Shown: positions 22,435 through 30,655 of the stretch, piece after piece
Numbering within the stretch: the stretch's first letter is position 1
Layout of the letters: every line of letters begins with the position of its first letter
Source of the DNA: a virus
Direction: 5' to 3' (one strand)
Length of the DNA stretch: 64,000 bases
IMG/VR virus record: IMGVR_UViG_3300031555_003080
Coordinates: 49,285 to 113,284 of that record
The notes under the pieces: generated by a model
Seen by the model: only the letters and a program-made list of their open reading frames with translations
Database searches by the model: none
Told to the model about the DNA's origin: nothing
Made by a program: the position numbers and the translations under genes

Positions 22435-22767
22435 TTAGTTATTTTCTAATTCTTTAAGAACTTCATTTTTATCCGCCAGATATGTTTCACAATTTTCTGC
22501 ATCCCAATAGACAATATAATTGCTGGCGTTTAAATAGCCGCCATCATAATACAGAATATCCTCAGAAATCACAGCTTCAGAATAAAAATCTGCATCATGC
22601 TCGGAATTTGCGATAGCGGAAGCGAGGAATACTCTGGCAGATTCCTCGCTATCGAATTCAAGTGCCATATCATCCCAACAGAGAGGGTAATTTTCTGGAC
22701 TATAGATATGCCACATCATTTCACGAACGGTAGACTCAGACATTCTGACCTCCACCCAATTCGGCAC
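22435..22767 (-). CDS. hypothetical protein
   Basis: 110-aa ORF. Confidence 0.5.
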   Translation of the reverse strand: MPNWVEVRMSESTVREMMWHIYSPENYPLCWDDMALEFDSEESARVFLASAIANSEHDADFYSEAVISEDILYYDGGYLNASNYIVYWDAENCETYLADKNEVLKELENN

Positions 22768-23182
22768 GAAGCTCCATTAAAAGCTTGCCGAGATTGTTCT
22801 GTCCCCTAATGTCTTGGCACTTCTCACAGTGGCATACACCCCAGAAGTTATCATGCCACCAGTTACCTTCTTCAAGATGCTGGTTGCCAGTAGCCAGCAA
22901 CTTTCTTTTAAGCTCTGGATTAGAAAATTTCTTTTTCAAAGCTTCTCTCATAACTTCCAACTTAATATCTTCCCAGTCAGAACGGAGAATGCATCTACGA
23001 CCCTTGCGCTTTGCTTCGCCAGGAGTTCGGGCCGTAGCAATTACAATGTAGTCATACTTATTATCGGTTTTCGCCGCCTGAAAGTAATGCTCCACTGTTG
23101 GCATTTCCATATTTCCATCTGAAATGGGAGATTCATAGAAGTTGCTTAAAAATTCAAATTCGCCTTCGAACTTATCAATCAA
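22736..23182 (-). CDS. NADAR/YbiA-like (DUF1768) domain protein, putative ADP-ribose N-glycosidase
   Basis: 148 aa; FLSNFYESP....VEHYFQAAK...GNWWHDNFWGVCHCEKC is a characteristic NADAR/YbiA motif set. Confidence 0.65.
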   Translation of the reverse strand: MIDKFEGEFEFLSNFYESPISDGNMEMPTVEHYFQAAKTDNKYDYIVIATARTPGEAKRKGRRCILRSDWEDIKLEVMREALKKKFSNPELKRKLLATGNQHLEEGNWWHDNFWGVCHCEKCQDIRGQNNLGKLLMELRAELGGGQNV

Positions 23183-24051
23183 AACGCAATTCCCTCCTCA
23201 AATTCCCACTCATGACGTCTTCGATAAATCAAAGGACGGGGAGCGGGCAGTCGAATACAATTCGTCTTATGCTGATTTCGCTTGTTACGCTCTTTAATAT
23301 TCTTATAGGTTTCATAATCGGGGACGATACCATCCAAAAGCAGGCTATCAAGAGTTTCATAAGTGAAACCCAGATTATCTTCATCAGTCTTGCCGCACAT
23401 GCCGTCAGAAGGAGTTTTAGCAATCAGTCGAGCAGGAATATTGTACATTTTAGCCAAAACCAAACCCATTGCAATAACTTCTCTCACAGTATAATGACCC
23501 AAGATAGAGAAATCGCCCGCGGCATCGCCATACTTAGTAGAATAGCCGATATAATCTTCAGACCAGTTGCAAGTATTTACAACTCGTCCACCAACGACAC
23601 CAGCCATTGCATATAGAGTTGCCATTCTAATACGTGCAGGAGTGTTTGTGCCGACTACTGGAATATTTTCAACCTTATGGTCAAAATCCCAAGCTTCGTC
23701 AATAGAGCGATAAAGGGCTGCACAAGCAGGACCAATATCAATCTCAACATAGTCAATACCAAGGCACTCGCATACAGTACGAGCATCATCGATATCAGAC
23801 TGAACACTCTGAGGCATCAGCACTCCGAAGACTCTGTCTGCACCAAGAGCTCGGACAAGCAGAGTAGCGGCAACAGTAGAATCCTTGCCGCCAGAGATGC
23901 CAATAACAGCTTTAGACTGTGGACCATTTGCAATAAAATAATCCTTAATCCAAACGCAGATATGCTCAATTTCCTGAGCAGGTTCAAAAGTCTTCTTAGT
24001 AGACACTTTTCTCACCCTCCAAATCAAAAATATAAACAGTGTAATCTCCAC
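23179..24051 (-). CDS. nadE: NH3-dependent NAD+ synthetase
   Basis: 290 aa; PP-loop GISGGKDSTVAATL (SGGxDS); NadE-like length and layout. Confidence 0.8.
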   Translation of the reverse strand: MEITLFIFLIWRVRKVSTKKTFEPAQEIEHICVWIKDYFIANGPQSKAVIGISGGKDSTVAATLLVRALGADRVFGVLMPQSVQSDIDDARTVCECLGIDYVEIDIGPACAALYRSIDEAWDFDHKVENIPVVGTNTPARIRMATLYAMAGVVGGRVVNTCNWSEDYIGYSTKYGDAAGDFSILGHYTVREVIAMGLVLAKMYNIPARLIAKTPSDGMCGKTDEDNLGFTYETLDSLLLDGIVPDYETYKNIKERNKRNQHKTNCIRLPAPRPLIYRRRHEWEFEEGIAF

Positions 24052-24535
24052 CGAGAACTTCAGTAATCATTTCAAGAATTACTGCCCAATTAGCTCCACC
24101 GCGAACACAACCAATCTTTTTAGGGAAACCAATAGTGCTTCCTTTTTTAATTGACTGTTTCATTAGATTTAAACAATTCCAAAAGGCATCGTAAGAGGTA
24201 TATCTCTTACCATCATATCCATAATATTGCTGTGCAAAAAGATTTACAACGGATTGATGTTTAATATCTTTCTCAAAATCTGTCCACAATGGAACAAATT
24301 GAATATCGCCGAGAAGAAGATCGCTGCCGCAAGGCGCCATTTCATAGCACCCATAAAGCTCAACGGCAGACTTTTCAGCAGCTTCACATTTTTCAATATA
24401 ATTCTGAAAAACAATCGGCCACTTTTCTCTAATAGATTTTGCGATACCAGAGTTCATTTTACCTTGGCAATTTACCTGATGACAAATGTAATCACATTCA
24501 GATTCAAGTAAATCACCTTTTCTGAAATAAATCAC
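23996..24535 (-). CDS. macro-domain (ADP-ribose binding/processing) protein
   Basis: 179 aa; RKGDLLESECDYICHQVNCQGKMNSGIAKSI matches the macro-domain N-terminal motif (GDIT..D.IVNAAN..L.GGGV..AI). Confidence 0.55.
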   Translation of the reverse strand: MIYFRKGDLLESECDYICHQVNCQGKMNSGIAKSIREKWPIVFQNYIEKCEAAEKSAVELYGCYEMAPCGSDLLLGDIQFVPLWTDFEKDIKHQSVVNLFAQQYYGYDGKRYTSYDAFWNCLNLMKQSIKKGSTIGFPKKIGCVRGGANWAVILEMITEVLGGDYTVYIFDLEGEKSVY

Positions 24536-28805: not shown

Positions 28806-29251
28806 ACCAACATCTCCGTAACAACCTGATTAACAATTTTCATATCAGCTTGACCCTTCATTAAAGGAGAGATAATTTTCATAATCTGACCCTTGTTCTG
28901 TTTAGTTGCCTCAAGGCGGTGAGCATTAAGAACGGTTTGAATAGCATTCTTAATTTTAACAGGGTCAGTAATCAACTGAGGAGCAAATTCTTTAACAACA
29001 GCCATTTCAGCAGTGTATTTAGCCAACAGCTCAGTACGGTCTGCAGGGCAAGTATCAATCATTTCTTGAATGGTTTTCTGATATTTAATTAAAACTTCAT
29101 TAGTAAGTTGCTCCGTAATTTCAAGGCGTCCCTTGGAAGTAATAGAAGCTTTCTGAACTGCATCAATCATTGCAGAAATAGCTTCCTTACGAACAAGGTC
29201 TTTGTTTTTCATAGCTTCAGTCTTTGCAGACTGCAAAATCTCGAGCGTCAT
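28802..29251 (-). CDS. GatB/YqeY-domain protein
   Basis: 149 aa; LEILQSAKTEAMKNKDLVRKEAISAMIDAVQKA resembles the YqeY N-terminal helix pattern. Confidence 0.5.
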   Translation of the reverse strand: MTLEILQSAKTEAMKNKDLVRKEAISAMIDAVQKASITSKGRLEITEQLTNEVLIKYQKTIQEMIDTCPADRTELLAKYTAEMAVVKEFAPQLITDPVKIKNAIQTVLNAHRLEATKQNKGQIMKIISPLMKGQADMKIVNQVVTEMLV

Positions 29252-29273
29252 TTATATGCTCCTTTCTATAAAA

Positions 29274-30128
29274 TTAGTAGCCTACAATGGTAACCTTATT
29301 TAAGGTATCCCATTCAGGATTAAAAATGGAAGTGGTAGTATAAATATGGTCCACCAGATCGGGATCATTATACATTTCGCCATCAATCATAGTTTTTTCT
29401 GCGTGAGTTACATATAGGAAAATACGATTTGCGCCCGCGGCTTTAAGAGCTTTTGCGGAATGAAGGAAAGTGCCTCCACGAGAGCAAATATCATCAATGA
29501 CAATAATATCCTTGCCTTCGACCAGCTCTTTGTTCATAATGTCCAGACCGAGGATTTTTCCAGTTGCCCAATCACGCTTTTTAATACCAAAGGCATAGGG
29601 CATTTCAATCATTCCAGAGTAGCGCTTCATAGAGCCTTCATCGGGATAGAAAGCAATTATATTTTCCTGAGCCTTCGCACGCAGATTGTGGTCATAATGG
29701 CCGGCAATTTCACAAGAAGCTTTGTAAATTGCATCATAAATAGAACTCTCAACGGTCATCTGTTCGACTCGATCCAGAAGAGCTAGTGCCACATTAGAGT
29801 GAGCATCAAGTACTCGAACTCTCTTAAAGTTCAGAGAATTGATAACATCACAAAAATATTTTAGAGTAAAAACATCTTCTGGAGCTTTGACTCTGTCCAT
29901 GCGAGCATGGGGGATGTAGGGCAGATCCAGTTCCATATTAGGGTTATTGTAATGCTTTGCGATGCAAATTAAAGTGAAAAGTTCCGCATCACTCTCATAA
30001 TTCCACTTAACTGCATAGATATGCTCATCGGGCAGATTGATATGGAGAGTGCCGTCGGGGAAAGAGCCCTGATTGATTTCAAATACTGTATCACGGTTAA
30101 TAGGATAGAGAGTAATCATATTTTTCAC
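29274..30128 (-). CDS. prs: ribose-phosphate pyrophosphokinase (PRPP synthetase)-like
   Basis: 284 aa; PRPP-binding loop IIVIDDICSRGGTF; type-I phosphoribosyltransferase fold with an N-terminal Prs domain. Confidence 0.65.
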   Translation of the reverse strand: MKNMITLYPINRDTVFEINQGSFPDGTLHINLPDEHIYAVKWNYESDAELFTLICIAKHYNNPNMELDLPYIPHARMDRVKAPEDVFTLKYFCDVINSLNFKRVRVLDAHSNVALALLDRVEQMTVESSIYDAIYKASCEIAGHYDHNLRAKAQENIIAFYPDEGSMKRYSGMIEMPYAFGIKKRDWATGKILGLDIMNKELVEGKDIIVIDDICSRGGTFLHSAKALKAAGANRIFLYVTHAEKTMIDGEMYNDPDLVDHIYTTTSIFNPEWDTLNKVTIVGY

Positions 30129-30655
30129 TCCTTAACAATAATCTGGCAAGATTTCATAACTTCAAGTGCTGCGGCGTGCTTCTCAGGAGTAACGCCAGCG
30201 CAGCAAGTGGCATCACAGGAAATGGTAGCAATATCGAAAAAATGAGCCTTTGCCATCAGTGCATTGGAAATAACACAAATGTCAGTACACAGACCAACAA
30301 ACTCAATTTCATCGTTCTTGGAAACCATGTCGCCAAGCCAATCAATCAGCTCTTCAGAACCAAAAGTAGGCTTCTCAATTACAACAGGATTATTTGCAAA
30401 CAGGGAAGTCAGCCGATCATCAATCTTCCAACCATCAGTACCATACAGACAATGAACAACAGGAAGAGCCTTACCTTCGGGAGTATTCAGATAATCAACT
30501 GTGTGAGAATCTGCAGTGAACACAAAATAAGTATCTTCATTCTCTGCATTAATCTTATCAACAAGACGAGGGATCATTGCCTGGGCTTCGGGGGTGCCCA
30601 GAGAACCATCAATGAAGTCTTTCTGACAATCGACGATAACAATAAACTTTGCCAT
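30125..30655 (-). CDS. nicotinamidase / isochorismatase-family cysteine hydrolase (PncA-like)
   Basis: 176 aa; IVIVDCQKDFIDGSLG...CGLCTDICV (catalytic Cys context). Confidence 0.7.
   Translation of the reverse strand: MAKFIVIVDCQKDFIDGSLGTPEAQAMIPRLVDKINAENEDTYFVFTADSHTVDYLNTPEGKALPVVHCLYGTDGWKIDDRLTSLFANNPVVIEKPTFGSEELIDWLGDMVSKNDEIEFVGLCTDICVISNALMAKAHFFDIATISCDATCCAGVTPEKHAAALEVMKSCQIIVKE

Follow-up and report, generated by a model that had tools for sequence, protein, structure and literature searches.

The DNA considered here is a single 64-kb stretch of a large phage (IMG/VR virus record IMGVR_UViG_3300031555_003080, positions 49,285 to 113,284), called the window below, whose convincing genes all lie on the minus strand at a G+C content of ~35–45%. 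Between positions 22736 and 30655, the window carries an island of genes for NAD+ and ADP-ribose (ADPR) metabolism. The first gene of the module (30125..30655) encodes a predicted PncA-like nicotinamidase of 176 amino acids (aa) with the PF00857 domain. The second (29274..30128, 284 aa) encodes a protein that is annotated elsewhere as a ribose-phosphate pyrophosphokinase and that we predict to be an ADP-ribose pyrophosphokinase, Adps. Further along the same strand lie genes for a Namat-family transferase with a serine, Ser213, at a position discussed below (24825..26300, 491 aa, PF04095 and PF18127); a macro-domain protein similar to Adpp and Poa1p (23996..24535, 179 aa); an NH3-dependent NAD synthetase, NadE (23179..24051), whose 290-aa open reading frame (ORF) probably starts at a GTG codon at 24006 to give 275 aa; and, as an accessory member, a NADAR (YbiA-like) protein (22736..23182, 148 aa, PF08719). 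The original prediction, drawn from the sequence, named six enzymes in this interval. All six are present on the minus strand, and a Pfam and HMM check of each ORF, part of a Pfam survey of 40 window ORFs, bears out the domain calls, with the macro-domain protein alone scoring below the Pfam gathering threshold.

The pyrophosphokinase-like and NAMPT-like proteins at the core of this island have experimentally characterized relatives in NARP1, which was found in phages Bas63, SpβL1, and FADO from an operon annotated as Prs (PF14572) and Nampt (PF18127 and PF04095) (Osterman et al. 2024). The "Prs" of NARP1 is the ADP-ribose pyrophosphokinase Adps, and its "Nampt" is Namat, which converts ADP-ribose pyrophosphate (ADPR-PP) and nicotinamide directly to NAD+ (Osterman et al.). 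Purified Adps makes ADPR-PP from ADPR and ATP, and canonical Namat is able to use phosphoribosyl pyrophosphate (PRPP) when ADPR-PP is absent. By published criterion, the two genes of a NARP1 locus are no more than 10 genes apart. In the window they are separated by six ORFs, within that limit, and in most relatives they are adjacent.

By sequence, the two window proteins are members of the Adps and Namat families of phages. The best solved relatives of the window Namat are the SpβL1 Namat crystal structures 9W5X and 9W5W (348 bits, 39% identity to SpβL1 Namat), compared with 177 bits for human NAMPT and 175 bits for KVP40 NadV (27.6% identity). For the pyrophosphokinase-like protein, PF00156 and PF14572 match weakly and phrog_619 matches well (1.6e-62). 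Its score against the Prs model TIGR01251 (77.9 bits, cut-off 113) is in keeping with those of canonical Adps proteins (70.5, 98.5, and 139.4 bits) and far from that of Escherichia coli Prs (422.7 bits). The motifs PYIPxARMDR, DxHSxV, KKRDxxTGKIxG, and DDICSRGGT are common to the window protein and Adps. In a neighbor-joining (NJ) tree, the window protein falls among phage Adps, with E. coli Prs, the sole cellular Prs outgroup, distant. A tblastn search with the window Adps matched 1498 phage records, with the same taxon and host profile as the Namat matches. The "PRPP synthetase" and "NAMPT" of the original prediction are thus members of the Adps and Namat families, and its statement that the enzyme set differs from NARP1 (Adps and Namat) is wrong for the core pair. 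The combination is nevertheless unusual in its nicotinamidase, its NadE, and its loss of an amide-binding aspartate. As a separate observation, the 547-position family phrog_12872 ("nicotinamide phosphoribosyl transferase") is matched by the window Adps at positions 77–224 and by the C-terminal part of the window Namat at 375–534, which suggests that in some phages Adps and Namat are fused into one protein.

The lost aspartate is the residue that contacts the pyridine base. In SpβL1 Namat, Asp215 hydrogen-bonds the amide of nicotinamide, and activity drops 8.1-fold when it is mutated to Ala (D215A). The equivalent residue of human NAMPT is Asp219; the D219S substitution "switches substrate affinity," and D219A is inactive. 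Human NaPRTase has Ser214 at this position, "directing specificity toward nicotinate," with other nicotinate determinants acknowledged to be unknown. The paper describing the Namat structure is silent on natural variation at Asp215. In our alignment to SpβL1, Asp215 corresponds to Ser213 of the window Namat (motif DKTST versus GTDT), and Lys211 stands where a conserved Gly is usual. The core residues Asp14, Tyr16, Phe187, Arg190, His243, and Arg307 are kept; within the NARP1 catalytic-core set (SpβL1 Asp13, Tyr15, Phe189, Arg192, Asp215, Arg306, and the catalytic His), only Asp215 is not. Two further changes relative to SpβL1 are Ala242 to Ser and His187 to Ala. The window enzyme thus has Ser at the position that decides between nicotinamide and nicotinate in the human enzymes, although the donor in the human enzymes is PRPP.

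Replacement of this aspartate goes hand in hand with a change in gene content. We assembled three sets of loci from public viral contigs, chosen for their homologues of the window Namat (80 loci), of SpβL1 Namat (52), or of the window NadE (8), and counted unique Namat sequences (n = 107), of which 79 have Ser or Ala and 28 have Asp or Glu at site 215. Beside Adps, a nicotinamidase-like gene is present in 78 and NadE in 76 of the 79 Ser/Ala loci; neither gene is found in any of the 28 Asp/Glu loci. Among the 67 Ser-type loci, Adps is found in 66, the nicotinamidase-like gene in 66, NadE in 64, a macro gene in 55, NADAR in 32, and a NadM-like gene for an NMN adenylyltransferase (NMNAT) in 9. 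In the four Ser-type loci without the nicotinamidase-like gene or NadE, the contig ends within the locus. All 12 Ala-type loci have Adps, the nicotinamidase-like gene, and NadE; 7 have the macro gene, and NADAR and the NadM-like gene occur once each. The 28 Asp/Glu loci include 27 with Adps, 2 with a macro gene, 3 with NADAR, and none with a NadM-like gene. The grouping is not due to chance: synteny of these genes extends to more than 90 related loci, mostly as one contiguous operon of ~4.6 kb in the order PncA-Adps-Namat-macro-(NADAR)-NadE, with NADAR inside the operon in 33 of the 79 unique Ser/Ala loci.

The Ser and Ala types form sister subclades of a single clade (bootstrap 100%), which groups with the Adps-associated Namat proteins in an NJ tree rooted on KVP40 NadV. 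The correlation between residue 215 and the presence of PncA and NadE is therefore strict but reflects a small number of independent events. Among phages at large, NadE is rare, with 49 of 50,697 records. A protein search returned at least 8000 homologues of the window Namat at E ≤ 1e-30; the best 120 of these are 65–89% identical to it and are nearly all metagenome sequences, many of them on contigs of 100–220 kb. The Ser/Ala variant is common in human-gut phages. A megablast search of the 7.9-kb region against the 50,697 phage records gave no match, so this phage has no close sequenced relative there, and the searches were carried out at the protein level.

Two enzymes accompany the Ser/Ala-type Namat. 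The isochorismatase-fold protein at 30125..30655 (PF00857, E = 6e-20) is, as judged from its sequence, a predicted nicotinamidase, with the Pyrococcus horikoshii pyrazinamidase/nicotinamidase 1ILW (4e-10), Mycobacterium tuberculosis PncA (3PL1), and Streptococcus pneumoniae nicotinamidase (3O90) as its best relatives in the Protein Data Bank (PDB). In the alignment to 1ILW, Asp9, Lys95, Cys127, the motif Asp49-x-His51, and His68 of the window protein each pair with an identical residue; we take Asp9, Lys95, and Cys127 to be the Asp-Lys-Cys catalytic triad and Asp49, His51, and His68 to be the metal site. NadE matches PF02540 (E = 3e-49) and TIGR00552 (161.7 bits, cut-off 63.65), has the motif SGGKDS at residues 53–58, and has 2E18 and 3FIU as its PDB relatives. 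It is predicted to be NH3-dependent because it consists of a single synthetase domain without a glutaminase domain.

The macro-domain protein has a weak Pfam Macro match (E = 8e-4), but PHROG places it in phrog_335, "phosphatase" (7e-34), and its AlphaFold model (pLDDT 87) matches the macro domains of DarG (9e-12), Poa1p (4e-9), and TARG1 in Foldseek; the PHROG match and the predicted structure together confirm the macro fold. By blastp, it is related to gp33 of FADO ("ADP-ribose 1''-phosphate phosphatase related," 1.6e-28) and to gp176 of Vibrio phage Cody, which is located between Adps and Namat (1e-5, ~26% identity). In the NARP1-AP system of Vibrio phage Gary, the macro protein Adpp is an ADPR-1''-phosphate phosphatase that defeats aRES (Osterman et al. 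2026); the operon of the related phage Cody has the layout of this validated Gary operon. The published definition places the macro gene no more than two genes away from the NARP1 pair. The window macro gene is the second gene downstream of Namat and thus falls within that distance.

We propose, from sequence comparison, that the window macro protein is likewise an Adpp/Poa1p-like ADPR-1''-phosphate phosphatase. A DarG-type DNA glycohydrolase, the reading that we rank below it, draws on the Foldseek order, in which DarG stands above Poa1p, and on a weak match to the DarG model of NCBIfam; the same weak match is, however, obtained with the reference Adpp-like proteins. The residues speak for the phosphatase as well. 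His19, in the motif HQVNC, presumably occupies the position of Poa1p His23, and residues 99–102, LFAQ, which we take to correspond to the lysine motif FPTK of DarG, contain no lysine at the position aligned to the DarG catalytic Lys. The position of the gene in the operon also fits a phosphatase.

The NADAR assignment is clear (PF08719, E = 4e-26, 92.6 bits against a cut-off of 35.1; TIGR02464, 88 bits against 73.7; phrog_1017, 1.5e-44). Its Glu31 and Lys38, in the motif VEHYFQAAK, have the same spacing as the catalytic Glu36 and Lys43 of T4 AdfN (gp30.3), a NADAR-fold DNA ADP-ribosylglycohydrolase that acts against DarT1. AdfN and the window protein thus share fold family and catalytic spacing; the window gene differs in lying inside an NAD+ reconstitution operon, and its candidate substrate is a DNA adduct or a soluble ADPR derivative. 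In the validated NARP1 phage FADO (locus L002, 5009–6285, gp33–gp35), a Poa1p-like macro gene is found two genes from a COG3236 (NADAR) gene, and the pairing of macro and NADAR genes is therefore not limited to the gut-phage clade.

If Namat chemistry applies, ADPR-PP is coupled to the base directly, and no NMNAT is needed in the window. The original prediction had reported that no NMNAT is evident and had concluded that the route to NAD+ is unclear. Its first point holds for the 64-kb window: none was found by Pfam on the 40 ORFs or by an NMNAT HMM on all six-frame ORFs, with positive controls at 1e-19 to 1e-90. Its second falls away with the NARP1 reaction, in which ADPR-PP and a pyridine base give a dinucleotide without NMNAT. 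Across the census, a NadM-like NMNAT lies in or beside the operon in 10 of the 79 unique Ser/Ala loci (~13%), at 9383–9916 in L009, 14252–14722 in L006 and L007, 25–489 in L136, and downstream of NadE in L068–L070, L073, L075, L122, and L125–L127; in one case, such a gene is found between Adps and Namat. The phages with a NadM-like gene may run dinucleotide and mononucleotide routes together.

Phages that carry homologous NadE (42–55% identity) and PncA without Adps and Namat have PncB and an NMNAT instead, the conventional enzymes for converting nicotinate through its mononucleotide to nicotinic acid adenine dinucleotide. One operon of NadM-type NMNAT, NadE, PncB (NAPRTase and NAPRTase_N), and PncA is found in L137–L139 (about 7478–10556) and L142 (7450–10285), and L141 (7300–10630) has PncA, NadE, and PncB. 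As read from their domains, the NadM-NadE-PncB-PncA operons are complete Preiss-Handler routes on viral contigs, and no description of a PncB-type operon as a phage NAD+ pathway was found. In L142, a Vut_1 vitamin transporter gene is also present upstream of the operon.

A distantly related case is Phass-1 (OQ749652.1), a complete 136-kb genome from the human gut that uses code 15 and has a predicted Clostridia host. Phass-1 encodes a nicotinamidase, Adps, Namat, a HAD-like protein, and NadE. At sites 215 and 213, the Phass-1 Namat reads Ala and Arg, and its canonical clamp is intact (GAYTYQYVTRD); no NMNAT is detectable across the complete genome, even with TAG read through. As far as gene content can tell, the complete Phass-1 genome indicates that the module can work by itself. 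The tree sets Phass-1 Namat apart from the Ser/Ala clade with a bootstrap of only 36%, and its Asp-to-Ala change may be an independent event. In the slot between its Namat and NadE genes (L148, 5576–5995; OQ749652.1, 97783–98202) is a protein of 139 aa that has the HAD-type motif DFDDT in place of a macro domain and may be a non-homologous phosphatase doing the job of Adpp.

NAD+ depletion is among the commonest bacterial antiviral strategies, and phage NAD+ reconstitution is a young and active field. On balance, and with a confidence slightly better than even, we read the island of this human-gut phage as an extended version of NARP1, which would rebuild NAD+ by way of deamidated intermediates and so act against NAD+-depleting immunity. 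The more specific claim, for which we see an even chance, is that the Ser/Ala-215 clade catalyzes the formation of nicotinic acid adenine dinucleotide (NaAD) and pyrophosphate from nicotinate and ADPR-PP and that, with nicotinamidase and NadE, it makes up a self-sufficient "deamidated NARP1." Host NADases would split NAD+ into ADPR and nicotinamide; the PncA-like enzyme would convert the nicotinamide to nicotinate; the Adps homologue would convert ADPR and ATP to ADPR-PP; the Ser213 Namat would join nicotinate and ADPR-PP directly to NaAD, with no need for NMNAT; and NadE would use NH3 and ATP to amidate NaAD to NAD+. The Poa1p-like macro protein could strip the 1''-phosphate left by aRES-type RES NADases to return ADPR, and NADAR could release the ADPR attached to DNA, for example in a DarT-type attack, or held in other conjugates. 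We propose this deamidated route as the simplest one in which each conserved gene has a role and no enzyme is missing. Why such a route might be favored is open to speculation: a host nicotinamidase might remove nicotinamide quickly, or the charged base might be trapped in the cell. The general idea of the original prediction, an island that rebuilds NAD+ and processes ADPR in the face of NAD-depleting immunity, is supported by this homology to experimentally validated systems.

Several observations weigh against the deamidated route. We infer nicotinate use from one position and from gene context, and with a single Ser/Ala clade the correlation counts as roughly one evolutionary event; if Phass-1, whose placement has 36% bootstrap, is independent, the number rises to two. 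The published signature of the Namat adenine selectivity clamp (SCH), GSxΦxΦxΦTRD, is not found in the window, where the corresponding stretch reads GAFCFH, a 10-aa insertion (ALFSLDNKFT), and VLTRD. Tyr396 of the clamp is also lost, with Phe392 and TRD kept. The criterion for the SCL loop of Namat is an Arg, Lys, or Tyr stacking residue at the third position; with the loop placed by alignment, SpβL1 Arg40 corresponds to Met41 in the Ser subclade and to Arg in the Ala subclade. Because the clamp signature is altered, the use of ADPR-PP is less certain than for canonical Namat. The preference of NadE for NaAD over nicotinic acid mononucleotide (NaMN) is not readable from sequence, and 3FIU, its second-best solved relative, is, we presume, the Francisella NMN synthetase. 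A phage nicotinamidase would also compete with any enzyme that uses nicotinamide, a point that counts in favor of the model only on the premise that the model is correct.

The altered clamp and the 10 loci with a NadM-like NMNAT would fit a mononucleotide route, with PRPP from the Prs-like protein, NaMN from the Namat homologue, NaAD from host NadD or, where present, the phage NadM-like enzyme, NAD+ from NadE, and a supply of nicotinate from PncA. Such a Preiss-Handler booster explains the Asp-to-Ser/Ala change and the strict link to PncA and NadE equally well, and the ability of canonical Namat to use PRPP speaks for it too. However, the Prs-like protein scores and looks like Adps and not like Prs, and purified Adps gave no measurable product in a Prs-type control incubation, yet it converts ADPR. 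NMNAT is absent from most loci, from the window, and from the complete Phass-1 genome; phages that use PncB bring their own NMNAT. In addition, Phe392 of the clamp is retained across the whole Ser/Ala clade, and Phass-1 combines an intact clamp with Ala215. We thus regard this booster as unlikely. Less likely again is an ordinary NARP1-AP system that still acts on nicotinamide, with Ser213 bonding the amide and with PncA and NadE boosting host nicotinate salvage in parallel. Homology to NARP1 and NARP1-AP is clear, Ser can donate or accept a hydrogen bond, and SpβL1 D215A keeps some activity, so that residual use of nicotinamide is possible. This explanation leaves unaccounted for the absence of PncA and NadE from all 28 Asp-type loci and their constancy with the Ser/Ala type. 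It also sits badly with the inactivity of human D219A and with a whole subclade that tolerates Ala, a residue incapable of this hydrogen bond, and a Namat that depends on nicotinamide would lose its substrate to the nicotinamidase encoded in the same operon.

Finally, the island could be a general auxiliary metabolic module that raises NAD+ for NAD-consuming phage enzymes in anaerobic gut hosts and has no role specific to immunity. The window is rich in genes of nucleotide and RNA metabolism (TS, DHFR, RNA ligase, kinase, and phosphatases), and the KVP40 salvage genes, now NARP2, were first characterized as a salvage pathway and raise NAD+ with or without defense. Against this purely metabolic role, Adps requires free ADPR, the product of NADase attack, and the macro and NADAR partners process ADPR derivatives generated by defense. 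We give it the lowest probability of the readings considered, quite a small one, although it is not exclusive of the deamidated route and is compatible with it.

Among the systems described so far, NARP1 is one of the closest to the deamidated module. The two gene pairs are homologous and share their Pfam domains (PF14572/PF00156; PF18127 and PF04095), the same phage clades, the gene spacing, and the proposed logic of ADPR to ADPR-PP to direct coupling with a pyridine base. They differ in that the Asp215 position of the window clade holds Ser or Ala, the SCH clamp is interrupted, Tyr396 is lost, and Arg40 aligns with Met in the Ser subclade; moreover, the window clade is constantly found with nicotinamidase and NadE, both lacking in canonical loci, and its proposed product is NaAD and not NAD+. 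The window shares with NARP1-AP a Poa1p-like macro gene within two genes, which is homologous to the macro gene of the Adps-macro-Namat operon in Thalassavirus Cody, but the two macro proteins are only ~26% identical, the window protein has a sub-gathering Pfam score and a fold slightly nearer to DarG, and its phosphatase role is predicted. From the Preiss-Handler pathway (PncA, PncB, NadD, and NadE), in the phage form of L137–L139, L141, and L142, the module has the two ends, nicotinamidase and NadE, as homologues of 41–55% identity. Adps and the Namat variant stand in place of PncB and the adenylyltransferase, and the ribose-adenylate part would therefore come from ADPR and not from PRPP and ATP. 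NARP2 (NadV/Nampt and NMNAT, KVP40) and NARP3 (PnuC and NadR) are likewise phage routes that rebuild NAD+ against NAD-depleting immunity. The window transferase differs from NARP2 in belonging to the Namat clade and in having no NMNAT in the window, and a Pfam search of the 40 window ORFs found neither a PnuC-like transporter nor a NadR-like enzyme.

In the window, the operon is split by a block of ~3 kb (26309..29251, minus strand), which we take to be an insertion outside the pathway because Adps and Namat adjoin in most relatives. The block contains a YqeY-like gene (28802–29251; Pfam YqeY, 1.9e-18), a 298-aa homing-endonuclease-like protein (27449–28345; PHROG HNH/homing endonuclease families, 2e-45 and 1e-21), a Thg1-like tRNA-His guanylyltransferase (26588–27445; Pfam Thg1, 1.6e-30; PHROG, 9.5e-92), and ORFs of 92, 61, and 65 aa. 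The 298-aa protein has three Cys-rich repeats and a C-terminal nuclease-like domain, and it looks mobile because ~39%-identical copies sit downstream of NadE in other loci. A 96-aa ORF between Namat and the macro gene (24532..24822, minus strand) has no matches in Pfam, NCBIfam, or PHROG and none by tblastn in related loci and is probably not a conserved part of the module. A plus-strand ORF at 30176–32866 (896 aa) was taken as spurious; it is antisense to an 813-aa minus-strand gene, and the other genes are all on the minus strand.

Elsewhere in the window, an array of 37 tRNA genes spans 48835–63895 on the minus strand, with one odd call at 54587–54660, and includes suppressor-type tRNAs with the anticodons CTA (52416–52506, amber) and TCA (61296–61369, opal). 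TAG is rare as a stop codon (2–3 of about 87 window ORFs), but a case for stop-codon recoding is not convincing, as a read-through test gave one possible TAG merge (52518–53333). The phage has both the Thg1-like gene and a tRNA-His(GTG) gene (58773–58848), which suggests maturation or repair of tRNA-His on the phage side, and in relatives Thg1 homologues are again found close to the NAD genes. An RNA ligase (34047–35456), an AAA_33 kinase (20638–21144), three calcineurin-like phosphoesterases (19869–20672, 21477–22172, and 38592–39476), and an RlaP-like nucleotidyltransferase (39668–40498) resemble RNA-repair genes, and together with the tRNA array they hint at countermeasures against tRNA-cleaving defenses. 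A DUF2828/DUF7788 protein (45507–47072, 521 aa) and an SPFH/Band-7 flotillin-like protein (18165–19658, 497 aa) are also encoded. The presence of two S-layer homology (SLH) domains in a 542-aa protein (43685–45313) suggests a host with an S-layer, probably one of the Bacillota, in agreement with the predicted Clostridia host of Phass-1, a distant relative.

A literature search returned NARP1, NARP1-AP, NARP2, NARP3, RyDEP, and AdfN, and, with most subscription journals outside the search, it found no work that connects nicotinate, NaAD, NadE, or nicotinamidase to NARP1, Namat, or ADPR-PP. This suggests that a nicotinic acid version of NARP1, with an Asp-less Namat, PncA, and NadE, is undescribed. 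NAD+ salvage in gut bacteria is mainly deamidated. If the deamidated route is correct, it would represent a new enzymatic reaction, a new pathway layout, and a further route of NAD+ reconstitution that is abundant in human-gut phages. It would provide a natural case in which a single position (Asp to Ser/Ala) re-targets a NAMPT-family enzyme from nicotinamide to nicotinate, and it would explain why some phages carry NadE and nicotinamidase. The annotation of hundreds of gut-virome contigs labeled "nicotinamide phosphoribosyltransferase" or "ribose-phosphate pyrophosphokinase" would be refined as well, and host physiology, in the form of the deamidated salvage of gut anaerobes, would emerge as a driver of counter-defense design.

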